Virus record (IMG/VR): IMGVR_UViG_3300019935_000001
Span: 36,145-100,144 of that record
Reading direction: 5' to 3' (one strand)
DNA length: 64,000 nucleotides
Source: a virus
Taxonomy: Duplodnaviria; Heunggongvirae; Uroviricota; Caudoviricetes
In this document: positions 2,663-59,116 of the stretch, piece by piece
Layout: every line of letters begins with the position of its first letter
Position numbering within the stretch: the first letter of the stretch is position 1
Program-made: the position numbers and the translations under genes
Notes under the pieces: model-generated
What the model saw: the letters and a program-made list of their open reading frames with translations, nothing else
What the model was told of the DNA's origin: nothing
Databases searched by the model: none

Positions 2663-3826
2663 TTAATCCATCCCCCACACTCGGCAATAATCTTCAAAGA
2701 TCTCGCCGTATACCAGGTTGAAGTTATCGATTGCCCGCTTATAGGACTCACGGCTCGACAGAGGCTTGTTAAGGTCATAGACGCTTGTCAGTTGCTCACA
2801 CGCCTTCTCGACCTCTGTGGTCTGCACAATGGCGTTACTGAGGACGTATTCGCCGTATAATTCCCTGATGTCAGACTCGACCTTCCGGGCCGTCTGAGTG
2901 CCGCTGTGTTTCGTGATCAAGATACGCACGTAGTCCATCTTCTTGTCTACTGCATCGAACAGAACAGACAGGGAGTTGGAGAACATCACGAACGAAGCCA
3001 GGTCGTAGGTGGCCGGAGGCACTGGGATAACCATGGCGTCCGCTGCGATCAGAGCATTCGTTGTAAGAGCGCCCATGTTCGGCGGGCAGTCGATCAGAAT
3101 CAGGTCGTATATAGGGCGGAGGGCATCCACGACGCGCTTCAGGCGAAGTAGAGGCTCACCCATCTTGCGGGAATTGTTAACGTCCCGGTTCGGGAGAGCC
3201 AGGTCAAGATCCTGAATGCCCAGGTTAGCCGGAATCAGATGGACATTCGGAACGTAAGTCTGACGGATCACATTCTGCAGTGCTGAGTAGTCCTCAAGAA
3301 GCACTGGGTGAATGGTATCTTCAATTGTCAGTTCCAGGTCCGGGATGAATGGCCCCAGCGAGAAGGTCGCGGATGCTTGAGGGTCGAGATCGATAACCAG
3401 AACCTTCATGCCTTTGTTCGAGGCCATATAGTGAGCCTCATTGACAACGCTCGTGGTTTTGCCAACGCCACCCTTGAAGTTACTTGATGCCTTTACGATG
3501 GCACCAGTACCAGAGGGTTTCTGAAAGCCTGTACCAAGCTGTTCGCGCAGTTCCTGGATACGATGAAGGGTGTAGATCTTGCGACCGTTTGTGCCTTTCG
3601 GCGTGTCCTTGTCGTGTTCTCGGAGCCAAGGTACAGAGCGACCAATCATGGCTGCGGCTTCGGCAACACCATATGTCCGTGGCTCTTTCAGGGTCTTTGG
3701 GGAAACTATCGAGGCACGTAGCTCTTCGAGTTTTGCGCTCCCTTTACGATTGAAGTTGGCAAAAGTCTCGCCCGCGTTTTCCATGGCAAGCCGTGACTTT
3801 ACTGTATCGAAGAGGTCTTCTGACAT
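2663..3826 (-). CDS. parA: ParA partition ATPase, type Ia (long N-terminal extension)
   Basis: 387 aa. Deviant Walker A KGGVGKTT. Size matches P1 ParA / F SopA. parB lies downstream. Confidence 0.9.
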   Translation of the reverse strand: MSEDLFDTVKSRLAMENAGETFANFNRKGSAKLEELRASIVSPKTLKEPRTYGVAEAAAMIGRSVPWLREHDKDTPKGTNGRKIYTLHRIQELREQLGTGFQKPSGTGAIVKASSNFKGGVGKTTSVVNEAHYMASNKGMKVLVIDLDPQASATFSLGPFIPDLELTIEDTIHPVLLEDYSALQNVIRQTYVPNVHLIPANLGIQDLDLALPNRDVNNSRKMGEPLLRLKRVVDALRPIYDLILIDCPPNMGALTTNALIAADAMVIPVPPATYDLASFVMFSNSLSVLFDAVDKKMDYVRILITKHSGTQTARKVESDIRELYGEYVLSNAIVQTTEVEKACEQLTSVYDLNKPLSSRESYKRAIDNFNLVYGEIFEDYCRVWGMD

Positions 3827-3852
3827 TTGATGGTATCTCTGTACTTTGTCCT

Positions 3853-3873
3853 ATATGGCAAATTTAAAGCCAT
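3853..3873. promoter_or_regulatory. candidate parA operator
   Basis: Inverted repeat TATGGC-N9-GCCATA 27 nt upstream of the parA ATG. ATGGCAAA / GGCAAAAG repeats at about 3855, 3879 and 3905. Confidence 0.35.
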
Positions 3874-3930
3874 AAGTAGGCAAAAGCAAGGTTTTCTCAA
3901 AAATATGGCAAAAGGGTTATTTTAGGGAAA

Positions 3931-3960
3931 ATAAAAGGTGGCATCGAAATGCCACTTTTT
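3931..3960 (-). terminator. hairpin GTGGCAT-CGAA-ATGCCAC flanked by A/T runs
   Basis: 7-bp stem at 3938-3955 with T-rich sequence on both strands. Positioned after the 4068..4502 minus-strand gene. Confidence 0.5.
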
Positions 3961-4067
3961 AACTGCTAAGGCCCAAAATGCTAGTGAAGTTAGGCCTGGA
4001 ATGTTTGCTATAAAGGGCCTGTGTTTACAGTTGTCTACAAGGGATGACCTCTATGAAGCAGAAGCCG

Positions 4068-4502
4068 CTAGTCATTCGACTGGTAATACTCTCTTATCAA
4101 TTGGTCGATTTTGGCCTGCAACTCAGGGTCGTAACTGCGCTTCTTGGTACCAGATTGTCTAAGTGCATTTAGTACCGCCTGCGTTGAGCCAATTTCAAGG
4201 TCAGATTTGGGTAACAGGTTTACTGCATCGAGTGCTGAAGATACGCCGTCCAGGTATTCTCTAATACACAGGATGGCAAAATTTGCTGGGTCTATCTCGA
4301 TAGCTTTTGCCAGCCTGACTGCCTTGTCGATAGGGACTTTGTATTTACCCTGGCGAATCATTGCAATGTTGTTGCCAAGCTTGAAGCCTGCTGCTTCAGC
4401 TATTTCCTGATGTGGCGTCTCTGCAAAGTCATTGAAGACGGTCTTGTCTACAAGCTCAGCGACCGGACACTCAAGGTTTTCGTGCCGTGTTTTACGTCTC
4501 AT
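4068..4502 (-). CDS. putative HTH DNA-binding regulator (XRE-like)
   Basis: 144 aa. HTH-like segment HQEIAEAAGFKLGNNIAMIRQGKYKVP. Lies upstream of the par operon. Confidence 0.5.
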   Translation of the reverse strand: MRRKTRHENLECPVAELVDKTVFNDFAETPHQEIAEAAGFKLGNNIAMIRQGKYKVPIDKAVRLAKAIEIDPANFAILCIREYLDGVSSALDAVNLLPKSDLEIGSTQAVLNALRQSGTKKRSYDPELQAKIDQLIREYYQSND

Positions 4503-4899
4503 TTCTCTGTCTCTCTGTAAAGGCGCATGTGTCCCTTTCGACCAAACCGGATGCCGTCCGAGTTTCCCCTTCCGTTTTGATCACGCTAAGCAAAAGTTTA
4601 TAGAATCAGCTGTTATAAGTAAATCAGCACCTACTAACAATAACGCTTAATTGTTAACGCGGATAGTTTGTCAGTTCTGCCTTATTAAATAGGCATTACA
4701 TTGCCTCGTCAAATTCTATAGGAAATATTCTTAATTTTGACTGATCATTCTGCTTAATATTTACTGACACTTACGAAGCTAAGGAGGGCTTAACTAAGTT
4801 TATAAGTTTGCTCTTACAATCTAACTATTAAACTTGTACTATCCCGTTTCGCTGATTTTTGTCAGCAAAATCGTTTGAAGACTGAGTATTGGATGTATC

Positions 4900-9269: not shown

Positions 9270-12200
9270 CCTGACGCACTACATTGGTTGCCGCACCCAC
9301 TTCAGTCTGGGCGAAAGCATCCTGTCCCCTAAGCGGGCCGTTAATGAGCTGTCCGGCATTGCGCCGAGCATGACGATTACCGACCTGAACTCTGTAAATG
9401 CTCTGCCGAAGTCCTACAAGGAGGCGAAGAGCGACGATTTGAATCTGAATTTTGGCGCTGTCTTTAAGGTCGTTGATGACCTGGAGTGGCGGAAGCCAAA
9501 GAAGGGTGAGAAAAAGACAGTTAACCATTTCTTCTCACCTCGACTGATCGCCAAGAATGTAGATGGCATGAAGGACATCATGCACTTGCTGTCCGTATCG
9601 AATGATGCAGACCACTTCTACATGACACCACAATGCTCCATTGAGGAGCTGATCGAGGCAGCTTCACGCGGCAACGTGTACGTGACCACCGGGGACACGG
9701 ATTCGCTGTTTGCGCACCCGGAATACAGAACAAAGCTAGTGCAGCTGGTACGCGCTCTGAAAGCGTCTGATTTGCTGTTTGAAGTCGTTCCAGTCTGCAC
9801 GGCATATTATGACCGTCTTAACGAAACGACGATCAGAGTTGCAGAGAGACTGTCTGCAGCCATGATCGTCACGCGACCGATCTATTACAGCTCCAGCATG
9901 AGCGGCACCCGCAACGCCATGTACTGCGTGAAGAATCGTAGCCAGGTAACAGAGCGCTGGCGCTCCGAGCCTGCAGTGAACAACCTGCACCCCCTGGTTG
10001 CTGCAGACATGGAGCAGGAGCTGAGCAACCTGATAGATCGAATGGTGCTGCGCGACCTGGATCGTGATGCTGTGACTGAAGCCCTGCACCGCGCTGTCGA
10101 TACCACCAACGCTCTGCCTGAAAAGCTGAACTACGCCTGGGAACCATATGACATCTGTCTACCTTCCATGAGTGATGATCCGTTTGGTGGGCTGGTAGAG
10201 ATCGTAAAGCAAGGCTGGACAGACCGGATCGAAAAGGTGGTATACGGGTTCCAACCAGATCAGAGCCAGCTACCGGAGTATCGGGAGCGCCTGAAGTACG
10301 AACTATCTGTCTTGAAGCGCATGGGCTTTGAGAACTACTTCCTTCTGGTGCATCAGGTGGTGTCGCAGGCTAAATCCATGAACATCATGGTAGGCCCGGG
10401 ACGAGGATCTGTAGGTGGATCACTCGTCGCATTTTTGATGGGGATCACCGATGTTGACCCTATCCGCTTTGGCCTGATCTTTGAACGATTCATCAACCCG
10501 GATCGACTCGACCTTCCTGATGCCGACCTCGACTTTATGTCCTCCCGCCGTGAAGACATCATTAAATGGTTGGTCAAAGAGTATGGCCAGGATTATGTGT
10601 GTGGCATCAGTAACTACGGTGAGCTTGGTGCATCTTCGGCACTAAGGAGCGCAGGTAAGATCCACGGCCTGACCGAAACCGATGTTTCATGCTCCAAACA
10701 GGTGCCGAAAGAGCACGGTTCCAGCAAGTCACTGGAAGAAGCGAGAGAAGAGGTTCCGGCAATCAAGGTCTTCGCAGATAAGCACCCGGAAGTGTGGGCA
10801 GACGCCTGCAACCTGCAGGGCATCTTCAACGTTTACGGCCAGCACGCTGCAGGTGTTGTAGTGGCCGGCGAACCCATCATTGAACGTGCTGTGGTTGAAG
10901 TCCGCAAAGGCGGTCAGCTCTGCAACTGGGACAAAAGCGTGGTCGAAGAGTTCGGCCTGGTTAAGCTCGATGTGTTGGGCCTGAGTAACCTGGATGTACT
11001 GCGCCTGGCAAAGGACTACATCAAAGAGCGTCATGGCGTAGCAATCGACTACGAGGATGTTCCGCTGGATGATCCGGACGTTCTGGCTGCATTCGGTGAG
11101 GGCAAGACAAACGCCGTGTTCCAGTTCGAGTCTGGCGGTATGAAGGGCCTGCTGAAGTCACTGGCAGAGTCCGGAAGCCTGACGTTTGAAGACATCGCAG
11201 CGGCAACCGCTCTATTCCGTCCGGGCCCAATAGACGCTGGCCTGATGGATCAGTATGTCGCCATCAAAAACGGCAACATGACAGAGACGTACCCGCATCC
11301 GATTTGTGAAGGCGCGCTGCGAGAAACATACGGGGTAATGGTCTATCAGGAGCAGGTAATGCAGATCGCTCGGGATCTGTCGGGCTTCTCGATGGCTGAA
11401 GCTGACAAGCTGCGTAAAGCGATCGGTAAGAAAGACGCCGACCTGATGGCATCAATGGGCGAGAAGTTCGTGCAGGGTGCTCAGGAGTCGGGCATGGCCG
11501 AAGTATCTGCACAGGCATTGTGGGATGACATCCTCGGCTTCGCGGCTTACTCCTTCAACAAGTCTCACTCTGTCGCCTACACGATGATCTCCTACCTGAC
11601 GATGTGGCTGAAGGTAAAGTACCCGGCAGAGTTCTTTGCCGCCTCAATGTCGATCCTGAAAGAAGAGAAGCTGCCTGGCCTGGTGCGTGACTGTACCGAA
11701 GCTGGCTTGATCGTAGTGCCCCCGGACATTAACCGCTCCACTGACAGGTTCGAGATTGGCTATGACGGTGCCAGACAGTGTGATTCTCTGATTATCCCGT
11801 TCCAGCGATTGAAGGGTCTATCCGAGAAGGCGAGCGCGGCGATTGTCGAGGCCCGTGAGAAGCGGAAAGAAGAGCAGGGCGATAGTCGCTTTGTTTCAAA
11901 GAATGACTTCCTGGGCTATGTGGTGAAGCGGGTGTGCAATGTCCGGGTACAAAGTGCCCTGGATGCGGTCGGTGCTTTCGCGGAAATCGAAGGTCAGATT
12001 CCAGCTCTGCACCCGGATCGAATCAAAGATCAGAAGACCCTGCTACCGGGACTGATCGCCAGCAATGTGAAGGCGGACAGAAAGATCGACCTGTCACCTT
12101 TCGTTCGGCGGGAGCTGGTCGGGCTGATGCAGGAAGCAAAAGACTGCTGCGAAACCTTCAAGGGTGAAACCGTTGTCGGCCCAGCAATGGCTAAAGGTCG

Positions 12201-17070: not shown

Positions 17071-18372
17071 GGAGGGTGTTCACCGTTCTGTGTCACCGTT
17101 TTATTCACAGGTCGACATACTGGTCGATTCTGTCAGGGAAGTGGATGCTCAGCTGAGACAGCGTGAGGTTCCAGTTCTGCACTGGATGCGTCCACTTCTC
17201 TGAGGCCCTCAATATGCCCGCATAGAGCAGCTTCAGCAGGCTGTTTTCATTGGCGAAGCCACCCTTGGTTTTGGTCAGTTTCCGGAACTGACGGTGCACG
17301 GCCTCAACTGCATTGGTCGTGTAGATCGCACGCCTTACCTGTTCCGGGTACTTGAAGTACACCGACAGGTTCTCCCACTTGCTACGCCATGACTTGATGA
17401 CCAGCGGGTACTGTTTCCCCCACTTTGCCTCCAGCTCGTCCAGCGCCTGCTCTGCGGCGTTTCGCGTCGCCGCCTTGTAGACGCATTTCAGATCCACCAT
17501 AAATGCCTTCTGATTCTTGCTGGCGACGTACTTCATGGAGTTGCGGATCTGGTGAACAATACACAGCTGTACTTCTGTTTCCGGATAGATGCTTTCGATC
17601 GCTTCAGGAAAGCCTTTCAGACCATCCACAGAGGCAATAAGGATGTCTTTCAGACCTCGATTCTGCAGATCTGTCAGGACGCTGAGCCAGTAATGTGCAC
17701 CTTCATTTTCAGACAGATAGAGTCCCAGCAGCTCCTTCTTACCTTCGATGGTTAGCCCAAGAATGGTGTACACCGCTTTGGAGATGAAACGACCATTCTC
17801 TTTCACTTTGTAGTGAATGGCATCCAGCCAGACAAAAGGGTATACCGGCTCCAGATCACGCTCTTGCCAGGCTTTAAGCTCCGGCACCAGGCGATCAGTT
17901 ACGGCGTTAATCATGCCGTTGGAGACGCTCATACCGTACATTTCACAGATATGGTCACGGATGTTCTGGTAACTGCTGCCTAATGCAAACAGAGACAGTA
18001 TCTTGCCTTCCATTTCATCAGTCAGACGGGTCTGATATTTCCTGACAGTCTGGGGCTCAAATGAGCCATTGCGATCTCTCGGCGTCTCCAGCTCGAACTC
18101 GCCAGCAGCGGTTTTGACTGTTTTCTTTGAGGTGCCATTTTTCCGATTGGCGGCCGGATTTTCTGCAAGGTGCTCATCAATCTCTGCACCCAATGCGGCT
18201 TCAGTGATCTGTTTGATCAGTGGTGTCAGGAGGCCATCCTTGCCATTGAGGTTCTGTCCAGATTGCAGCGCTTTGGCAAACGCCTGAATATCGATTTCGT
18301 ACTTGTCAGACATGATGTGTCGCTCCCCGTTTCACTCAGTGTAGGAAACGACACAGAACTCTGAACACTACC
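17071..18372 (-). mobile_element. IS256-family insertion sequence (about 1.3 kb)
   Basis: Single Mutator-type transposase gene. Imperfect terminal inverted repeats: GGTGTTCACCGTTCTGTGTC (about 17075-17094) versus the reverse complement of GACACAGAACTCTGAACAC (18350-18368). No target-site duplication could be identified. Confidence 0.7.
17105..18313 (-). CDS. IS256-family (Mutator-type) transposase
   Basis: 402 aa. Typical family N-terminus (GKDGLLTPLIKQITEAALGAEIDEHL) and core (WLDAIHYKV, VDGLKGFPEAI, CIVHQIRNS). Confidence 0.9.
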   Translation of the reverse strand: MSDKYEIDIQAFAKALQSGQNLNGKDGLLTPLIKQITEAALGAEIDEHLAENPAANRKNGTSKKTVKTAAGEFELETPRDRNGSFEPQTVRKYQTRLTDEMEGKILSLFALGSSYQNIRDHICEMYGMSVSNGMINAVTDRLVPELKAWQERDLEPVYPFVWLDAIHYKVKENGRFISKAVYTILGLTIEGKKELLGLYLSENEGAHYWLSVLTDLQNRGLKDILIASVDGLKGFPEAIESIYPETEVQLCIVHQIRNSMKYVASKNQKAFMVDLKCVYKAATRNAAEQALDELEAKWGKQYPLVIKSWRSKWENLSVYFKYPEQVRRAIYTTNAVEAVHRQFRKLTKTKGGFANENSLLKLLYAGILRASEKWTHPVQNWNLTLSQLSIHFPDRIDQYVDL

Positions 18373-21368: not shown

Positions 21369-23290
21369 AGTTCAAGAGCCTGAAAATCGAAAATTTTCTG
21401 ACAGTCGGGGTTATCGAAGCGGGCCTAGCCAATAAGGGGTTGGTGCTTGTACAGGGGGAGAACCGTGATGACACCAGTCAGGACAGCAATGGGTCGGGCA
21501 AGTCTTCATTCGTGGATGCACTGTGTTGGTGTCTTTATGGATCGACAGCCCGAGGTGTTTCGGGTGATGCCGTAATCAACGACACGGCGGGCAAGAACTG
21601 CCGGGTTGTGGCCTCTATCGAATTTGATGGCGAAGAGTACAAGATCTCCCGCCACCGCAAATACACCAAGATGCGCAACCGCCTGATCGTTGAAGGCCCA
21701 TCCGGCGATCTGACACTGGGCACAGATAAGCTGACGCAGGAGGTCGTGAATAAACTGGTCGGTGCCACTGCAGATGTCTTCTGTGCGTCCGTATACGCGG
21801 GCCAGGAAAACGTCCCGGATCTGCCGGGCATGACAGATGTGAACCTGAAAGCAATCGTCGAAGAAGCAGCCGGTATTAACCAGCTCGATGCCGCTCATAA
21901 GCTGGCCCGCGATAAGAAGAACGCCATTCAGCGTGATCTGGAGAACGATAATCGTGATCTCCAGTACAACGAGCAGAAGCTGCAGGATCTGAACAGCAAT
22001 CTCGCCACTACAGAAGCCCGGCTCAAGCAGTGGAAGAGCAACCACGAAGTTCGGGTTGAAGAGGCAAAGCGAAACCTTTTTTCGGTGAAAGTCGAAAAGG
22101 AAAAGCTGACGAGCGACGCGGAGACAGCCCGGACGGTTGAGGAGATCACTGCTGACCTGAATGCGTTGTCTGCACAGCTGACTGATCACGGGACTGCAAC
22201 TAAGCAGCGACAGATGCTTACTCAGGAGGCGGTTGCTGTCGAGAAGAAGGCGGCCGTTCAGGGTGCAAAAGTCGCCACAGTCACTACAGAGGTGAAGCGC
22301 CTGAAGAACAAGCTCGACGCTGTGACCGGAAAGCTCGGAGAGCCATGCTCTGAGTGTGGCCGTGATCACGACGAGTCAACCCTGGGTGTCGCTCACCAAA
22401 CTGTCAAATCTGAGCTGAAAAGCAAAGCGCTTGAAATGAAGAGCGAGAAAGCAGAGTTGGCGAGACTCACAGAAGCGTATCAGAGCGCTGTACAGCGCGT
22501 TTCAGAGTTCACCGATGCGATGACCGATGTTAGCGAGATAATCGCCGCACAGAGCGAACTGAGCGAAGAGAGAGCCGCTGCCAGCGCCCGTAACGCGAAG
22601 GTAGAGGCAGCGAGCGAAAAACTGGGCCAGTGCGCTCGCACCTACAAGGCCGTTCTGCACGAAAACAACCCTTATGCGGACTCCTATGCGGACATTGCCG
22701 AGCAAATCAGAAGTCAGTCTGCCCTGATCGATGATGCCCGGACTGCGATCAAGGCCAAGGAATACAAGCTCGAAGTCGCAGAAGAGGCTGTGCATGTGTT
22801 CGGCCCGGCGGGTGTACGTGCTCATATCCTGGACACAGTGACTCCGTTCCTGAACGACAAGACCTCTGAGTACCTGTCTGTGCTTTCCGACGGCAACATT
22901 CAGGCCGTATGGAACACGCTCGGGACAACTGCGAAGGGTGAGGTTCGGGAGAAGTTCAATATTGAAGTCACCAGCGAAACCGGTGGCGACTCCTTCAAGA
23001 AACTGTCAGGTGGTGAGAAGCGAAAAGTTCGCCTGGCAACGTCTATGGCCCTGCAAGATCTGGTAGCGAGCCGAGCAACAAAGCCTATCGACCTATTCAT
23101 TGCAGACGAGGTTGATGCAGCTATCGACGAATCCGGGTTGGAACGACTGATGACAATCCTGAAAAGCAAGGCCGAACAGGTTGGTACTGTTCTGGTGATT
23201 TCTCACTCGGACCTGAAGAGCTGGATCAGCAACAGTGTGACGGTTGTGAAAGAGAAGGGCATGGCGCGTCTGGAAGGGTATGCACTGTGA
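21365..23290 (+). CDS. sbcC: SbcC/Rad50-family ATPase
   Basis: 641 aa. Walker A NGSGKSS, long coiled coil with a CSEC zinc hook, signature LSGGEKRKV, Walker B LFIADEVD. Confidence 0.85.
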   Translation: MKFKSLKIENFLTVGVIEAGLANKGLVLVQGENRDDTSQDSNGSGKSSFVDALCWCLYGSTARGVSGDAVINDTAGKNCRVVASIEFDGEEYKISRHRKYTKMRNRLIVEGPSGDLTLGTDKLTQEVVNKLVGATADVFCASVYAGQENVPDLPGMTDVNLKAIVEEAAGINQLDAAHKLARDKKNAIQRDLENDNRDLQYNEQKLQDLNSNLATTEARLKQWKSNHEVRVEEAKRNLFSVKVEKEKLTSDAETARTVEEITADLNALSAQLTDHGTATKQRQMLTQEAVAVEKKAAVQGAKVATVTTEVKRLKNKLDAVTGKLGEPCSECGRDHDESTLGVAHQTVKSELKSKALEMKSEKAELARLTEAYQSAVQRVSEFTDAMTDVSEIIAAQSELSEERAAASARNAKVEAASEKLGQCARTYKAVLHENNPYADSYADIAEQIRSQSALIDDARTAIKAKEYKLEVAEEAVHVFGPAGVRAHILDTVTPFLNDKTSEYLSVLSDGNIQAVWNTLGTTAKGEVREKFNIEVTSETGGDSFKKLSGGEKRKVRLATSMALQDLVASRATKPIDLFIADEVDAAIDESGLERLMTILKSKAEQVGTVLVISHSDLKSWISNSVTVVKEKGMARLEGYAL

Positions 23291-23835
23291 GTGCAGATCA
23301 GATCATCAAGGGGATATTCCGGAGGCACGACATTTGCGTGTTGGGCGAGGATACCGTCGCCCAACTATGGCAGATGGTTGACGGCTTTGAGGGTGATGTG
23401 ACCGAGGAAATGGCAAAACACCTGTCTGAGGAGGTTCAGCAGGAGATAGATGATGTTCTGCAGGGGCTATCACACTGGATTGATGCACGCTTGGTAGGGC
23501 CTGACCCCGTTAGTGCTGCTATCAAAGGCTCCCGCGACAGTGTGCGGGTTCTGTCCCCGACAAAGAGAGACAGCTATCGGGTTGAAGTAGTGGACGCCAA
23601 GGATGGAGGCGCTATTGATCGGCTAACTCGCAGTACGAAGTGGTTGGCGACAAACACTGACATTTTGAATCGGATGAATCCGAAAATCAGAGGGTCACAG
23701 GCAACGGCGGTATTTGTAGATGAATTTAACGAGTGGGGAAGCGAGGATTCTGGCTGCTCTGAACAGGAGCGGCGGTCGAGTGCTCAGTCCAGAAGAGACG
23801 AACGGTACGGGGAAGCCTATGGTGCCTTCGCTTAA
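23287..23835 (+). CDS. hypothetical protein ending in ...YGAFA
   Basis: 182 aa. GTGA overlap with sbcC. Confidence 0.5.
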   Translation: MSADQIIKGIFRRHDICVLGEDTVAQLWQMVDGFEGDVTEEMAKHLSEEVQQEIDDVLQGLSHWIDARLVGPDPVSAAIKGSRDSVRVLSPTKRDSYRVEVVDAKDGGAIDRLTRSTKWLATNTDILNRMNPKIRGSQATAVFVDEFNEWGSEDSGCSEQERRSSAQSRRDERYGEAYGAFA

Positions 23836-24295
23836 AGCATACAGCCAGGAAGATCTGGCAGCGATCGCTCAGTACCTGGAAGACAACCCGAGCGAGGAGT
23901 TTGAGGTCGAACCTCCATCCAGCGGAATCTACACGGTGAAAACGGAAAACGGCCAATACAGAAGGCGCCCATTTACCAAAAGCAGCGTTGGAGGGCTTCG
24001 CTGCGTTGGCGGATACCTGGGGACGAGAGGCGACACGATCTTCCAGTTTAGGCAGGGCATGGAGCACATCCCCGTTGAAGTCCACGGCGAGCGCAGCTGG
24101 GTTATGGAGATCGGCAGCAAAGAGACTGCCCGTGAAGGGATGGGGCCCTTTATCGAAAGCATGATGGCGAAGGTGATGGAGTACAGGGCCAATCTTGCAG
24201 CTCTTGCAGCTCGGAAAGCAGAGGAAGAGAGCGGGGTCGACCACAGCATGATGTCCCGCTACTCCGACCAGGAAGATTTTGGTGCGTTCGCCTGA
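23720..24295 (+). CDS. hypothetical protein ending in ...FGAFA (alternative start at 23819)
   Basis: 191-aa ORF overlapping the previous gene by 116 nt. The overlap frame encodes a wHTH-like GEARILAALNRSGGRVLS. The ATG at 23819 would cut the overlap to 17 nt. Confidence 0.45.
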   Translation: MNLTSGEARILAALNRSGGRVLSPEETNGTGKPMVPSLKAYSQEDLAAIAQYLEDNPSEEFEVEPPSSGIYTVKTENGQYRRRPFTKSSVGGLRCVGGYLGTRGDTIFQFRQGMEHIPVEVHGERSWVMEIGSKETAREGMGPFIESMMAKVMEYRANLAALAARKAEEESGVDHSMMSRYSDQEDFGAFA

Positions 24296-24924: not shown

Positions 24925-25003
24925 ACTGCGCATTTGAGATTGGAGGGTATTCGCCTGATCACGAAAAAGGGCGTGGGGAGGGGGCATCAGCTCCCTTCTT
25001 GGG

Positions 25004-25393
25004 CTATGACTTGTCGTTGACCCCGAAGAGACCTTTAAGGATGAAGCCAACCAGCCCGACGACGATTGTCATCGAGGTTAGCATAGCTAAGGCTACGGTC
25101 TCAGGTATGGGTAAGTTAAGCTTCACCTGATGGTTCATGTAATAGAGCAGGCCAAACACTACAACCACGCACCACCAACACATGAAAAGAAATACGTGTC
25201 TTGCGAGATCTTCTTTCAATCGATTGTTCGTATGCTGCCCTTCAGCATGAGCGCGTGTAAGCGCTGCATTCGCTTTGGCCTGCACATAGTTGTAATCATG
25301 CCCTTGCTCGTTAAGTACAGACCCTTCTGTTTCCTGGACCTGTCGAGGGCTGTTGGAGCCCGCTCTGCCTCCTGCAAATGGCCCTTCTGTCAC
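25004..25393 (-). CDS. small membrane protein, candidate toxin partner of the Panacea-domain protein
   Basis: 129 aa with two C-terminal hydrophobic helices. Start overlaps the upstream gene's stop (ATGA). Confidence 0.5.
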   Translation of the reverse strand: MTEGPFAGGRAGSNSPRQVQETEGSVLNEQGHDYNYVQAKANAALTRAHAEGQHTNNRLKEDLARHVFLFMCWWCVVVVFGLLYYMNHQVKLNLPIPETVALAMLTSMTIVVGLVGFILKGLFGVNDKS

Positions 25394-25920
25394 AGTCCTT
25401 TCACGCTCTTTGGGTTTTCTACAACTTTCTGAAAGTGGTCACGAATTAGGGCGTTTGGTATATTCGCAAACGGGCGATCTTTTCCACCATTCTTGTTCCA
25501 AACTTCGTCCCACGGTGTGTCAGCCCGGTGGGTTAGATCCACGAGATCCATAGCCTCCTGTTCACCATAAAGATCAAGAACGCCTCTGATGACCGTCATA
25601 TCATCCTGACTGAAATGGACGGAAGGGGGCCCAAATTCACGGATCTTGCTTGAGCCATGATGCTTGTATTCATGGTAGATGGCTTGAATCACAGGCCCGA
25701 ATTTCCAAGCCTGGGTGTCATCCATGTACAAAGCTCTTCCTCTCCAGCCAAGCATATAGCCGTGCGCAATGTACGTCAGTTTTTGCAGCTGAAGGTTTGA
25801 AAGGAAAATACTCTTCTGTGCTGCCACATGAAGCATCATCTGAGCCACATCGGTGGCATTGTGCAAAATGCCGGTTTCCTGCTCGACAGCGGAGCTGGCT
25901 GTGCTGGATGTATTTGTCAT
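25390..25920 (-). CDS. Panacea (DUF4065, SocA/GepA-like) domain protein, putative antitoxin
   Basis: 176 aa. LQLQKLTYIAHGYMLGWRGRALYMDDTQAWKFGPVIQAIYHEYK matches the DUF4065 core pattern as I recall it. GGAGGG RBS. Confidence 0.75.
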   Translation of the reverse strand: MTNTSSTASSAVEQETGILHNATDVAQMMLHVAAQKSIFLSNLQLQKLTYIAHGYMLGWRGRALYMDDTQAWKFGPVIQAIYHEYKHHGSSKIREFGPPSVHFSQDDMTVIRGVLDLYGEQEAMDLVDLTHRADTPWDEVWNKNGGKDRPFANIPNALIRDHFQKVVENPKSVKGL

Positions 25921-26321
25921 ACCTAACCCTCCGTTGTGTTGGGTTTTACTGTATATATTGACAGTGTTAGATCATTTGATTTTATGTTGGAGAGAGCCTG
26001 CGTGCAAATTTAATTGAGTTAAATTTATGACATCCGGCGTGTAGATTGAGGTTGCGCTGACAGAACAAGATAGAGGGGGTTATGATGCTGCAAGGGATTC
26101 AGTGGTCATATCGATACTGCGACATGATAAGAATATTGGCCGTGACGAATGGTTAATCGAAAAGACTTTTCTTTGACCCTTTCGTGTGAGCGCGAAGTAC
26201 GGATATTGATCTGTAGGGTCAGGCCCTAGTGGCCTGAATAGCTAGCTAGTCTAGCTACTGTGCAAGCCTGAGAAAAGCAGGCTGCAGATCTTCGCTTTAG
26301 CTGCTGCCAATCAGCGTAATT

Positions 26322-26567
26322 TTACTGGTAACAGTCCTCCTCGGGGCAATCGATTTCTCCTTCCCCGTCGCATTTTTCGCACTCAACCTCATAAAGAACC
26401 CCCTCTCCATCACATGAGTGACAGCTCTTGAGTCTCCCCTCATCATCCGGGTACAGCCCTGTGCCATTGCACTGGTGGCAATCCCGATCTAGCAAGCCTC
26501 CATTACAGTTATCGCAGTGAATTTTTCCTGTATCCATACATGTTGTGCATTTAATAGCTTTACACAC
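26322..26567 (-). CDS. stand-alone DnaJ-type cysteine-rich zinc-finger protein
   Basis: 81 aa with five CxxCxGxG-like units (CTTCMDTG, CDNCNGG, CHQCNGTG, CHSCDGEG, CEKCDGEG). Confidence 0.6.
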   Translation of the reverse strand: MCKAIKCTTCMDTGKIHCDNCNGGLLDRDCHQCNGTGLYPDDEGRLKSCHSCDGEGVLYEVECEKCDGEGEIDCPEEDCYQ

Positions 26568-27355
26568 AGCGTTTGCCTCATAGTGAGTTGGTGATTTGAT
26601 CCCTCACTACGTCCAAGCTGCACGCGACTACCCTGAGACAGCCGAGGGTCAGTTTGGCAACTTGTGACGCAGAGGGGATACGACCTTCGCGTCAGTGCCA
26701 AAGCACCGGCCTTATTTATATGGGGGGTGGAACGTAGAATCCAAGAGGCTTTAGACTGAAAAGTGGCAGATCTAACCTGTATGGCGAGAAATGCCGCTTA
26801 ATTCGTAAGTTGAGACTACGGAATCAAAAATAAAACTATATTCAATATCGACCTCCGTCTCGTACAGAAAGCAGGAGTTTATGTACAAAGTAGACACCAC
26901 TATATCGGATACGAGCGGCCCCTGACTCTGCATCGGGAGATCGCTATTGCCGCACAGGTACGACCAATTGCAGGCGTGAACTTTAGTCGCTAGGTAACCA
27001 GCTAACCGGCGGCCTCTTTTTCCGAGCCAAAATGTAGTTATCCAGACAAACCCGGCGATGCAAGGCTCTTGTCTGGATGGGATAGATGGGATTAAAGAGA
27101 GAGCTTCAGAGAGAGCTTCAGAGAGCCGAAGAGGGAGCCGACTGAGTTTTTGCCATTCATTTAGTGCTTGAAAGCCGAAACGCCGGGCTCGCCTTATTCC
27201 CCTTGAGGTCGGCTTCTTGTTTGGCTGGTCGAATAGTGAAAGTCCCATCCTTGATTCCTACTTACAGATCGCAACAGACAAATCCTAGATTAGCATTCTG
27301 TAAATTCCAGTAAATTCCCAGCTTTTTAAGCTAAACCATAAATGAGCCTTTATAA

Positions 27356-27375
27356 ATAAGTAGTAACTGACTTAT
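27356..27375. promoter_or_regulatory. dispersed palindrome ATAAGT-N8-ACTTAT
   Basis: ATAAGTAGTAACTGACTTAT, 27 nt upstream of the nrdA ATG. Confidence 0.5.
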
Positions 27376-27401
27376 AAACTTTGTAACATGCTGCGCACTC
27401 A

Positions 27402-35837: not shown

Positions 35838-36448
35838 TGCGCGAACTGATTGTAAATGTTACCGATATTGAAACTACTGGCCTGAAGCAGGAAGACGGCC
35901 ATCGCATCATTGAGGTTGCGATGGCCCTGCTGAAGATCCAGTTCAACGACGACAACACCTTTGCTGGCTATAAGCGAGTAGGCAAAACCTGGTGTCAGCG
36001 AATCAATCCGTGCCGGAACATCGATGCAGCTGCACAGGCTGTTCACGGTATCAGCTTATCGAGTCTGCGCGGCGAGCCGGTCTGGGAAGATGTAGCCGGG
36101 CGTGTTGCAAAGATCCTGGCGGCGAGTGATGTCGCGGTGGCTCACAATGTTGAGTTTGATATGCCGTTCATTGCTCTGGAGCTGGTACGCATTGGCCAAG
36201 AGATCCCGGACTTCGAAACCTTCTGTACTTTGGAAGGCGGGCGATCTGCTACGGGCCTGGGCACAGTACCTAGCCTGCAGAAGCTATGTTGGGCCATGGG
36301 TGTGCCGTACAACCCGGATGAAGCCCACGCTGCTGATTACGATGTGGACTGCACAGTTGATGCGCTGGTCAAGGGTTTGAATCTGGGATACTTCAGCTTC
36401 GCTGATGTCCTGAACGAAAAGTATGGTGAAGCCAGTGCTGAAGTTTGA
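35837..36448 (+). CDS. DnaQ-like DEDDh 3'-5' exonuclease
   Basis: 203 aa. Exo I VTDIETTGL, Exo II VAHNVEFDMPF, Exo III HAADYDVDC. Confidence 0.8.
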   Translation: MRELIVNVTDIETTGLKQEDGHRIIEVAMALLKIQFNDDNTFAGYKRVGKTWCQRINPCRNIDAAAQAVHGISLSSLRGEPVWEDVAGRVAKILAASDVAVAHNVEFDMPFIALELVRIGQEIPDFETFCTLEGGRSATGLGTVPSLQKLCWAMGVPYNPDEAHAADYDVDCTVDALVKGLNLGYFSFADVLNEKYGEASAEV

Positions 36449-53592: not shown

Positions 53593-55095
53593 ATGTTGTA
53601 CCGGATTATTGTCGCCAAGGGTGCTAACTATGGCCGGGTGCTGGGAGCCCACGTTTCAGATTCCGCTGCAGGTCGTGCCCTGGGCAAAAACAAGCAGGAG
53701 TTTGGAACAGGCTCGGTACTACTAATCGAAACAGACGAGCGACTGGTGCAGGGTGTGTGTTACCCGGATGTTGCCGATCAGGGTATTGCCGATCATCACC
53801 ATAAGTCAGGTATGCGCCTGATGGAACTGGTCATTAAAAACCGGGCCACCGGTGAAGTGCCGGATTGGGTGATTGCCAGCATCATAGATGAAGGCTGGAC
53901 GATGGATTCGCTGAGCCAAGAGTTTGGGCCGCTGGTTCACCAGAAAATGGAGCAGGAGCGCCGCGAGCACCAGAAGCGGGCAGAGCGCTCTGCAATGATT
54001 CACGCAGGTCGCCTCTGGATGAAGAAAGAGATCGATGACCACGTTATCGAGCTGCCAGCCATTACAGGAACCCAAGCTCGCCGCCAATTCTTCACCGTTC
54101 AGATGACTCTGCAGCAGGTTGACCGGCTTTTGACTGCAGATCACAACGATCTGGCCCCTGAAGATCGCAGCCAGCGCAAACTGAACCCGGCACGGGGCAA
54201 AAAGCTGGGCGGGTACATTGTTGGGAACCACGACAGCTACGTTCTGCCGGCCATCACCGTCTGTATCGATCCGGATATGACCTTTGACCCGATTGAAGGG
54301 TTCGGCGGGGCAGTTGGCACCCTGAAAATACCGGTAACGTCTCTGGTCTATATCATTGACGGCCAGCACCGGCGTGAAGGTATCCGGTGGGCCTTGTCCG
54401 CTCAGTCGCTCCGCTGGCAGATGCAGAAGGAGACGATTGCGGTCACCATTTACTACGATGAAGGGCCTGAACGGCGTCAGCAGATGTTCTGTGACATCAA
54501 CTATCCAGCTGTCCGGGTGTCATCCTCTTTGAACATGCTCTACGACCGCCGAAACTCACTGAACCACTGGATTCTCGATATTTTGGCTAAAAATCAGTCA
54601 ATTTGGGGTCGAATTGAGCTGGATAGCGCGAGCGTAGGTGCCCAAAGTTCCAAATTGTGGGCCGTAGTCGCCATGAAGAAGGCTCTCCTCACGGTTTTGG
54701 GGTTGTCAGAAGTGCAATTTTTCACCAAAACCGATGAAAATCGGGCCGAAATGGAAAAGGTGGTCGATAGGTTCTTCGACACTCTGGCAGAATATCTGCC
54801 GCGCTGGGGCATGGTGATAGACCCGGATTGCTCCGCTCCGGACATCAGGAGCGACTATATTGTTGGCCACGCTGTTTTCCTGCAGGCGCTAGCTATCGTT
54901 GCCCGCAAAGCCCAGGAAGAAGAGGGCGGCTGGCAGAAGCTGTCCGGGCTGGCCAAGCTCGACGTAGCGCGAGATTCAGAAGTGTGGGAAGGTAAATGTG
55001 TCGTCAATGGAAGGATGAACCGGTCGGCAGCCGGGGCCAACGCCACTGCGGCAGAAATTTGTAGCCAGATTGGCATAGAAATGGACTGGAGTTGA
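53593..55095 (+). CDS. DGQHR-domain (DndB-like, ParB/Srx fold) protein with about 165-aa unknown N-terminal domain
   Basis: 500 aa. YIIDGQHRREGIRWAL and QQMFCDINYPAV (the DndB-family QxFxDxN motif). Confidence 0.75.
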   Translation: MLYRIIVAKGANYGRVLGAHVSDSAAGRALGKNKQEFGTGSVLLIETDERLVQGVCYPDVADQGIADHHHKSGMRLMELVIKNRATGEVPDWVIASIIDEGWTMDSLSQEFGPLVHQKMEQERREHQKRAERSAMIHAGRLWMKKEIDDHVIELPAITGTQARRQFFTVQMTLQQVDRLLTADHNDLAPEDRSQRKLNPARGKKLGGYIVGNHDSYVLPAITVCIDPDMTFDPIEGFGGAVGTLKIPVTSLVYIIDGQHRREGIRWALSAQSLRWQMQKETIAVTIYYDEGPERRQQMFCDINYPAVRVSSSLNMLYDRRNSLNHWILDILAKNQSIWGRIELDSASVGAQSSKLWAVVAMKKALLTVLGLSEVQFFTKTDENRAEMEKVVDRFFDTLAEYLPRWGMVIDPDCSAPDIRSDYIVGHAVFLQALAIVARKAQEEEGGWQKLSGLAKLDVARDSEVWEGKCVVNGRMNRSAAGANATAAEICSQIGIEMDWS

Positions 55096-58355: not shown

Positions 58356-59036
58356 CTAATTCCCTTGAGAGCGGCTTCTTTCTATCCTTCTACTGCGCTC
58401 TATCTCCCAATCATCAACAGGGTCTGACTTTGCCCAAGCATCAAACAGCTTTCGCTGCTTCTTGCTGATTCGAATCCCATACTTCTCTGACATATAAAAA
58501 TATGTCCGGGCTATATCCCCACGAATGTGGGGGGCTGGCTCAACAATTCTGGACTTGAAGTCAACTTCAACATCGCATGCGCCATATACGCGACGCTCAC
58601 CCGCGATCATTCCATATCGGTAGTTTGACCGATCACCATTAACTTCACCGATGGCCGGTACTAAATTGTACATGTCAGCCTCCATTTTCTTGAACCGGGC
58701 ATCTTTCCGACAGGCTTTTCGCCCCCCTTCTTGCCAACACTGTAATTGGTGACCAAATTCCCATGCAGGCACCAAATGCTCCCACTCTATCCGGGCCGCC
58801 CTCTTCGCTTGCTTTCGAGGTGTATAACCGCAGCTTTCCCAGTTTGGGGTCAGGTGTTTTCTGGAGCTCCCAGGCTTGTTCTTTAGGGAGTAATCACAGC
58901 CACAGTAGAACGAAACTTGATGGTCAGCATATATCTGCTTGGCGAGAATCTTTTTAGACTTAGAAAACGAGGGGTCTGCAGCTACCACTGAAGGTAGAGC
59001 AAACAAAATAATGCAGGTAACAATCTTAATCTTCAT
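58356..59036 (-). CDS. endA: secreted endonuclease I (EndA/Vvn family)
   Basis: Start at the ATG giving the signal peptide [57 protein letters not shown]. Confidence 0.85.
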
Positions 59037-59116
59037 CCAGCAGCCTTCCCTTATCCGCTCATTAGACAATCCTGTGCTGCAGTATAACCAAACGCGAATG
59101 TACTTCGAGCGGGCAC

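Follow-up and report, generated by a model that had tools for sequence, protein, structure and literature searches.

A T3-type panAT gene pair as probable toxin–antitoxin cargo of an SSU5/pHCM2-like phage-plasmid

Locus and gene organization

The window analyzed here, 64,000 nucleotides (nt) of a Caudoviricetes record from IMG/VR (IMGVR_UViG_3300019935_000001, positions 36,145 to 100,144), carries on its minus strand two overlapping genes, panA and panT. Together they probably form a type II toxin–antitoxin (TA) bicistron of the PanAT family, toxin cluster T3, carried as accessory cargo by a phage-plasmid resembling SSU5 and pHCM2. The upstream gene, panA (25390–25920, minus strand), is predicted from its open reading frame (ORF), Pfam, PHROG and BLASTP matches and an AlphaFold2 model to encode a standalone Panacea (DUF4065) antitoxin of 176 amino acids (aa), with a disordered N-terminal tail of about 20 residues and no extra domain. 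The downstream gene, panT (25004–25393, minus strand), encodes a putative 129-aa membrane toxin that by homology and hydropathy falls in the short form of the T3 family, with hydrophilic residues 1–65, two predicted transmembrane (TM) helices and the C-terminal motif VGLVGFILKGLFG.

A first-pass annotation had placed ORFs of 176 and 129 aa at these positions, with the stop of the first overlapping the start of the second, and the sequence bears this out in full. The overlap is the tetranucleotide GTGA (25390–25393, minus strand), in which panT begins with GTG within the stop of panA, and it implies that the two genes are translationally coupled. The panA gene begins with ATG, and a strong ribosome-binding site, GGAGG, lies 7 nt 5' of this codon (25928–25932, minus strand). 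The same −4 geometry is found in the Pseudoalteromonas and Pleionea loci and also occurs among T3 entries in the part of the published table that was consulted (PMC8832971). Gene calls on four other metagenome contigs that carry an identical PanA, each from a different sample, give identical boundaries for both genes. The adjacent partner on these contigs has the same length, and the single partner sequence retrieved is 99% identical to PanT. The N-terminal start of panT is further supported by a conserved M-x-x-x-(P)F and by independent gene calls.

A consensus scan gave a candidate sigma-70 promoter for the bicistron, TTTGCA-18-TAAAAT (25979–26008, minus strand), which matches the consensus at 9 of 12 positions and is weak evidence for a promoter. 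A search for flanking repeats or an operator palindrome returned short matches at chance level, none of them convincing. The sole Rfam match in the island that holds the pair, to CRISPR-DR36, is below threshold (19.7 bits versus 38); therefore, no RNA antitoxin or regulator is indicated.

The Panacea protein PanA

Panacea is the only domain that Pfam finds in PanA. The match to PF13274 (SocA_Panacea) scores 59.5 bits against a cut-off of 25.7, with an E-value of 7.5e-16, and covers profile positions 1–112 of 113, such that the DUF4065 core proposed for this protein in the first-pass annotation stands well above chance. PanA also matches phrog_1281 (E-value 4e-35).

An AlphaFold2 model built with 31 homologues (pLDDT 92.1, pTM 0.86) begins with a disordered tail at residues 1–20, followed by seven helices (22–35, 42–60, 79–88, 105–118, 123–131, 136–143 and 156–168), the second of which is long and central, and three strands (69–72, 75–77 and 152–154). 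The second strand contains the GPV signature, G75-P76-V77, whose codons lie at 25690–25698 on the minus strand. Across the 31 homologues G75 and P76 never vary and conservation of V77 is at least 90%, and the GPV motif has been reported to matter for function (PMC8832971). The modeled topology agrees with the published description of Panacea, in which helices α1–α7 are accompanied by strands β1 and β2, helix 2 is central and GPV lies in β2. No solved structure similar to PanA was found in the PDB, either by sequence search or by Foldseek fold search, and therefore the fold was compared with published models and descriptions only.

PanA keeps every invariant position of its family. The fifth helix has the invariant H131 at its C-terminal end, and the aromatic F74 directly precedes the GPV motif. 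In the Bartonella PanA, the substitutions Y56A and H120E have been reported to abolish neutralization of a membrane PanT; F74 and H131 appear to resemble Y56 and H120, by position rather than by alignment.

The membrane protein PanT

Kyte–Doolittle means over 19 residues peak at 2.26 (residues 67–85) and 2.34 (residues 100–118) in PanT, and residues 1–65 contain seven lysines and arginines, eight aspartates and glutamates and no hydrophobic window. A single-sequence AlphaFold2 model (pLDDT 70.8) consists of a disordered tip, a helix from residue 16 to 92, an NLPIP turn and a second helix from residue 98 to 124. Two C-terminal hydrophobic helices had been read from the sequence at the outset, and both the hydropathy profile and the modeled helical hairpin agree with that reading. 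Predicted TM helix 1 spans residues 67–86 (codons at 25136–25195, minus strand), as supported by hydropathy and the model, and predicted TM helix 2 spans residues 99–122 (codons at 25028–25099, minus strand), as supported by hydropathy and by an alignment in which this helix holds the conserved family motif GLVGFILKGLF. Residues G113, L114, G121, L122 and F123 are invariant in the family alignment; PanT is full length and keeps every invariant position.

PanT has no match to a curated Pfam, NCBIfam or PADLOC family. Its C-terminal two thirds match two PHROGs of unknown function, including phrog_13343 (E-value 2e-13). A word-indexed protein search returned only one near-identical metagenome copy, and the relatives were recovered by an exhaustive phmmer search, which gave 65 cluster representatives of 104–223 aa that all align through the two-TM C-terminal part.

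Relation to PanAT pairs of cluster T3

A tblastn search of annotated phages with PanT identified three E. coli prophages, one of which is annotated with PanA and PanT. By BLASTP, PanA is 31% identical to the E. coli prophage PanA over 163 aa (E-value 2e-27), and PanT is 38% identical to the prophage PanT over the C-terminal 77 aa (E-value 1e-12). This prophage PanA is WP_000287252.1 in RefSeq E. coli genomes, where it adjoins several near-identical toxin alleles, and WP_000287252.1 is the validated PanA(Esc. col.) of Kurata et al. 2022, Table 1 (PMC8832971). The accession of the validated toxin, WP_000019185.1, was absent among the six E. coli loci inspected, and the toxin alleles there all have the validated PanA as partner.

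Like the pair described here, the T3 pair of Shiga toxin-producing E. coli (STEC) O31 (WP_000287252.1 and WP_000019185.1) is an antitoxin-first bicistron with a standalone Panacea protein that lacks an N-terminal domain, its PanT combines a hydrophilic N-terminus with two TM helices in the C-terminal part, and the pair resides on a temperate mobile element. The two pairs differ in the length of PanT (129 aa here versus 182 aa), in the junction of the genes (a 4-nt overlap here versus a 22-nt spacer), in the C-terminal motif (GLVGFILKGLFG here versus GLVGFVVSGLFKS) and in location, which is a plasmid-prophage here and the end of an integrated lambdoid prophage in STEC O31.

Further relatives are found in marine bacteria. 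PanA is 35–43% identical, and PanT 32–35% identical, to the proteins of the Pleionea and Catenovulum pairs; the BLASTP E-values of PanT against the respective partners are 4e-18 and 4e-10, and that of PanA against the Pleionea PanA is 5e-36. The consulted part of the published T3 table lists Catenovulum maritimum Q1 with a spacing of −1 and Pleionea mediterranea DSM 25350 with a spacing of −4 (PMC8832971). Both loci were also retrieved independently here, with a gene geometry that agrees with that table. In the rows consulted, all entries are antitoxin-first (A|T) and "noNTD" (PMC8832971), and the window pair likewise has the A|T order, a 4-nt overlap, a PanA without an extra domain, and a toxin in which a hydrophilic N-terminus is followed by TM helices.

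Vibrio, Catenovulum and marine metagenomes contain PanA relatives at 43–53% identity, and each of these has an ORF of 113–129 aa directly downstream, either overlapping or no more than 3 nt away. Except in Vibrio parahaemolyticus, these partners align with PanT and share the N-terminal M-x-x-x-(P)F and the C-terminal VGLVGFILKGLFG. The V. parahaemolyticus PanA, 48% identical to the PanA of the window, overlaps by 4 nt a 129-aa partner that is unlike the T3 toxin (BLASTP E-value 1.4) and has no Pfam match (3001–3878 of the retrieved loci). Within one PanA lineage the partner thus appears to have been exchanged recently, which illustrates the partner swapping known for Panacea.

Hidden Markov models were built for the PanA and PanT families, and all retrieved loci were scanned with them. 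In 50 of 51 viral contigs a Panacea ORF lies on the same strand, 21–47 nt upstream of the PanT relative; the remaining contig is truncated, its sequence starting within the toxin gene. The same pairing is seen in seven genome and metagenome loci, among them Pseudoalteromonas, Rheinheimera and Pleionea genomes, where all eight intact pairs are linked and the genes overlap. Clustering sorts the 60 toxin ORFs into 22 groups at 70% identity and into 12 at 50%, so redundancy does not account for the linkage of PanA and PanT.

Two sub-families can be recognized among these loci. The long form, in enterobacterial prophages, has a toxin of 167–210 aa with the C-terminal motif GLVGFVVSGLFKS and a spacer of 21–47 nt between the genes. 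The short form, in marine lineages, has a toxin of 113–130 aa with the motif GLVGFILKGLFG and a stop/start overlap. Judged by these features, the window pair is a member of the short form, together with the pairs of Pleionea mediterranea, Catenovulum maritimum, Vibrio cholerae 5 and Grimontia hollisae (toxins of 113–130 aa, GLVGFILKGLFG, −1 or −4 overlap). In the consulted part of the published table, the marine short-form T3 pairs are chromosomal and lack experimental validation, with V. cholerae scored "Toxic" only and Pararheinheimera "stuck in cloning"; the copy described here lies on a phage-plasmid-like element.

A related observation comes from Bacterioplanoides pacificum, where a 59-aa remnant of the C-terminal part of a T3 toxin and a Panacea ORF with a weak score overlap in different frames (1541–2005 of the retrieved locus). 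This looks like a decayed PanAT locus.

The first-pass annotation had proposed a PanA–PanT module with a membrane-targeting toxin. Sequence homology of both genes and their conserved synteny support that proposal and refine it: by the same comparisons, the pair belongs to the short form within the known T3 cluster and does not represent a new type of PanT. The comparisons also establish, at the level of sequence, the antitoxin-first order, a PanA that is a standalone Panacea protein, and a PanT in which a soluble N-terminus precedes a two-helix membrane hairpin.

Predicted mechanism

Experiments on homologues indicate how the pair would act. The E. coli PanT shut down transcription, translation and replication indiscriminately, and it depolarized and permeabilized the membrane (PMC8832971). 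By extension, free PanT would insert into the inner membrane, dissipate the membrane potential and permeabilize the membrane, and this damage would in turn shut down macromolecular synthesis. PanA would neutralize PanT by direct protein–protein binding.

The Bartonella choladocola (apis) pair, PanT(D11/T12)–PanA, suggests where such binding may occur. Its toxin also depolarizes the membrane; the N-terminus is unstructured, a short helix precedes the TM region, and this pre-TM region is directly bound by a standalone Panacea domain, which is also what PanA is here. Contact of the Bartonella PanA with the N-terminal region of its PanT was predicted and is supported by published mutagenesis. By analogy, PanA likely grips the N-terminal region of PanT and the amphipathic helix just before TM1, and binding may need the GPV/β2 face and the conserved histidine at the end of helix 5, probably with no need for ClpXP or Lon. 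The Bartonella toxin belongs to a cluster other than T3, namely T12, and homology between T3 and T12 is only suspected by the authors (PMC8832971).

An alternative is suggested by the Panacea founder SocA, which works as a proteolytic adaptor: PanA could act in the manner of a type VI system and hand PanT to ClpXP or FtsH for continuous degradation. The Caulobacter SocA–SocB system and the window pair have in common the Panacea domain of the antitoxin, PanA scores 95.3 bits against the NCBIfam SocA model NF047745, and the published authors regard the two mechanisms as possibly not mutually exclusive. That score is far below the equivalog cut-off of 190, however, and the SocAB toxin, which is removed by ClpXP-dependent degradation, is unrelated to PanT. 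SocB is a soluble protein that targets the replication clamp, whereas PanT is a two-TM membrane protein with no match to a SocB family in Pfam or NCBIfam. In addition, validated PanAT pairs were neutralized normally in strains without ClpXP and Lon, and published mutagenesis shows that a standalone Panacea protein directly neutralizes a membrane PanT. Given the sub-threshold score, the unrelated partner and the protease independence of published PanAT pairs, an adaptor role for PanA is quite improbable.

Several points weigh against reading the genes as a functional T3 TA pair that works by direct binding. Identity to the sole fully validated T3 pair is modest, and for PanT it is confined to the C-terminal 77 aa. 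PanT also lacks the acidic N-terminal extension of about 55–80 aa found in the enterobacterial long form, and therefore the PanA-binding region may differ. The published pull-downs that show a complex were obtained with five other PanAT pairs, whose PanTs are not membrane proteins. PADLOC has no model that matches PanA or PanT. A Vibrio cholerae pair with a −4 overlap is scored "Toxic" rather than "TA" in the consulted part of the T3 table, and some PanTs are not toxic in E. coli or are not rescued there (PMC8832971). Lastly, the promoter-like sites found in the region by the consensus scan are no more numerous than in shuffled sequence, and the DNA downstream of panT folds no better than shuffles (z 0.14), which puts a terminator at chance level.

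Some of these points would also fit an inert or decaying passenger, in which the genes are intact and PanT is either not toxic in its native host or not expressed. Eight predicted PanTs were not toxic in E. coli (PMC8832971), the signals for transcription do not exceed chance, the rest of the island that holds the pair looks gene-poor or degenerate, and a truncated remnant exists in Bacterioplanoides. Both ORFs are nevertheless full length with every invariant position of their families in place, the strong ribosome-binding site and the coupling overlap are preserved, and the identical PanA with its same-length partner recurs on contigs from four other samples. A passenger of this kind is thus improbable, and a functional T3 TA pair remains the preferred reading.

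Host element and accessory insertion

The genes on either side of the pair belong to a plus-strand backbone, with SbcD, SbcC and a RuvC-like resolvase on one side and NrdA and NrdB on the other. Between the RuvC-like and NrdA genes, an island of 2.4 kb with ORFs on the opposite strand (24925–27401) shows a drop in guanine-plus-cytosine (GC) content to 0.44–0.50, from 0.53–0.57 in the flanks. The order SbcD-SbcC-x-RuvC-NrdA-NrdB-ThyA is conserved in related phage-plasmids, in which the RuvC–NrdA junction is tight: the two genes are 75 nt apart in Klebsiella, and two small co-directional genes lie between them in Aeromonas. That such low-GC, opposite-strand DNA interrupts an otherwise tight junction identifies it as an accessory insertion. 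Strand, GC content and synteny with relatives thus corroborate the small opposite-strand island that had been noted at 24.95–27.35 kb. Nucleotide searches gave no match in the plasmid collection, and those in the phage collection were confined to NrdA and a short stretch of the RuvC-like gene, with none to the island itself. In neither collection does the panAT cassette have a close DNA relative.

The panAT pair is the only well-supported cargo of the island; the remaining 1.5 kb or so between panA and nrdA holds no convincing gene. A cysteine-rich ORF of 81 aa (26322–26567, minus strand) was considered as a third component of the PanAT module and rejected, being absent from all 61 related loci and not called on sibling contigs. 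It has five CxxC motifs and sub-threshold similarity to DnaJ zinc-finger and anti-TRAP families, and may be a small zinc-ribbon moron or not a gene. An ORF of 158 aa (26772–27248, minus strand) has no family match in any library scanned and contains a perfect 12-nt tandem duplication, two copies of AGAGAGAGCTTC at 27096–27119 that encode EALSEALS. Its coding status is doubtful because it is called on only one sibling contig.

The gene content of the window points to a plasmid-like replicon. It encodes a replication initiator (Rep), ParA and ParB as well as CobS/CobT-like proteins; a DnaE-like polymerase, single-stranded DNA-binding protein, exonuclease, RecA/UvsX-like recombinase, SbcCD, the RuvC-like resolvase and a helicase; and NrdAB and ThyA for nucleotide metabolism. 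The DnaE-like gene has 65–68% DNA identity to genes on mostly non-mobilizable plasmids of 100–135 kb, and the RuvC-like protein matches 956 plasmids, including replicons of the Y. pestis pMT1 type, of the size of Salmonella pHCM2 and of about 110 kb from Klebsiella. These replicons correspond to the SSU5 supergroup of phage-plasmids, described by Pfeifer et al. 2021 (PMC7969092), and the host element looks like an SSU5/pHCM2/pMT1-type phage-plasmid rather than a generic phage. No virion or lysis module was identified among the window ORFs sampled, with about 39 kb of the source contig of about 102.7 kb lying outside the window; the status of phage-plasmid is therefore deduced from the backbone.

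Another possibility is that PanT is a holin-like lysis or lysis-timing factor and the Panacea protein its antiholin-like inhibitor. PanT resembles class II holins in its small size, its two TM helices and its charged C-terminal tail, and its E. coli homologue permeabilizes the inner membrane (PMC8832971). Yet PanT matches no holin family in Pfam or PHROG, and the genes next to it are RuvC-like and NrdA rather than an endolysin or spanin. The locus is an accessory insertion absent from relatives of the backbone. Homologues lie in chromosomes and beside plasmid replication genes with no lysis genes nearby, and on an 83-kb Logan contig that carries the closest relative the lysozyme gene is 7 kb from the PanAT pair. 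Since no holin family is matched, lysis genes are not among the neighbors and the insertion is accessory, a holin/antiholin role is highly improbable.

TA systems are recurrent accessory genes in the shell genome of the SSU5 group (PMC7969092). Another phage-plasmid cargo, the P1 Phd–Doc system, is likewise an antitoxin-first type II module on a plasmid-prophage, with protein families and a toxin target unrelated to PanAT. In the related Aeromonas plasmid NZ_CP077222.1, a HipA-family toxin gene lies upstream of SbcD (83–1495 of the retrieved locus), and a GNAT/DUF1778 TA pair lies on the opposite strand between NrdB and ThyA (10493–11279 of the retrieved locus). Judged from these sequences, junctions of this backbone module repeatedly host differing TA cargo, and relatives carry nothing or other cargo at the RuvC–NrdA junction.

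Other genes of the window were also recorded. The recombinase and SbcD genes of the backbone are separated by an opposite-strand insertion of an IS256/Mutator-family transposase (PF00872, 337 bits; 17105–18313, minus strand), with a 153-aa ORF of unknown function just upstream of the transposase. Two plus-strand ORFs between SbcC and the RuvC-like gene (23287–23835 and 23720–24295) share 116 nt, read in different frames, and have GAFA as their last four residues; neither has a family match, and the second is called with a later start on sibling contigs (171 aa). A 500-aa protein (53593–55095, plus strand) matches DndB over the full domain (PF14072, 256 bits); this family is tied to DNA-sulfur modification, and the protein is possible DNA-modification or defence cargo. 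An Endonuclease I family protein (PF04231, 136 bits) is encoded upstream of a helicase gene (58356–59069, minus strand).

Mobility and biological role

The closest relative of the window pair is found on the 83-kb Logan contig, a phage-like genome of 36.6% GC that is rich in small genes, encodes PhoH and a GH108 lysozyme, and has its NrdA divided between two ORFs (425 and 356 aa). Here the cassette is co-directional with its neighbors and lies just after ThyA–DHFR (10001–10921 of the retrieved locus). It is the best-conserved segment between this contig and the window, and the backbones are otherwise unrelated; therefore, the PanAT cassette moves between unrelated phages. Elsewhere, a Pseudoalteromonas homologue adjoins a Rep3 plasmid initiator, another homologue lies among housekeeping genes, and the E. 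coli relatives are at the extreme end of integrated prophages. A 91-kb metagenome contig holds two diverged T3-like PanA–PanT pairs back to back in tandem (3001–4842 of the retrieved locus), between a SNF2-family helicase on one side and DUF4391 with an N6/N4 methyltransferase on the other, in surroundings that resemble a defence island and a restriction-modification system.

Two roles would fit this evidence, post-segregational stabilization of the plasmid-prophage and exclusion of competing phages, either alone or together. Stabilization is plausible because the host element is plasmid-like and because the Pseudoalteromonas homologue lies beside a Rep3 initiator. The ends of integrated prophages, the tandem duplicate in the helicase/methylase island and the 37% GC phage contig are settings in which addiction makes little sense; they fit a mobile cassette that may serve exclusion or abortive infection, and likewise the idea of Panacea as a sensor.

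Under this second role, Panacea would sense an invading phage or the shut-off of the host and free PanT, such that the cell is depolarized before the competitor finishes, and the module would protect the host population of the phage-plasmid rather than stabilize the plasmid. Ernits et al. 2023 hypothesize a sensory role for Panacea, and show antiphage activity of another phage-encoded membrane-depolarizing TA system, RosmerTA of phage Kita. The E. coli relatives at the ends of integrated prophages, a setting in which plasmid addiction has no bearing, the two tandem pairs between the SNF2 helicase and DUF4391 with the N6 methylase, and the closest pair, on a phage contig with no plasmid-maintenance genes seen in the 20 kb examined, all point the same way. 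This context evidence is anecdotal, however, and other homologues lie among housekeeping genes or beside a plasmid Rep gene. The literature searched yielded no report of a T3 PanAT pair acting in defence, and PADLOC gives no match. Exclusion as the role of the module is accordingly possible but doubtful; the point at issue is biological role, and exclusion would be consistent with the same molecular mechanism of membrane depolarization by PanT and neutralization by PanA.

A bolder version holds that the short-form T3 cassette is a phage-borne weapon or sensor, in which Panacea senses a competing phage or loss of the element and releases a membrane-depolarizing effector. It draws on the movement of the cassette between unrelated genomes, from a 52% GC phage-plasmid here to a 37% GC phage contig, and is speculative and unlikely. 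If true, a Panacea system would for the first time have a natural trigger and a biological role.

Significance

The family, the architecture and the mode of toxicity of such pairs were already described in 2022–2023, and the pair reported here is a sound annotation rather than a discovery; it leaves the known working of such systems unchanged. If functional, panAT would extend the accessory repertoire of SSU5-like phage-plasmids by a T3 PanAT module. It would also provide a compact, 129-aa membrane-depolarizing toxin whose PanA-binding N-terminal region is far shorter than that of the validated E. coli toxin, and a PanT this compact could help to map the minimal interface between Panacea and its toxin.

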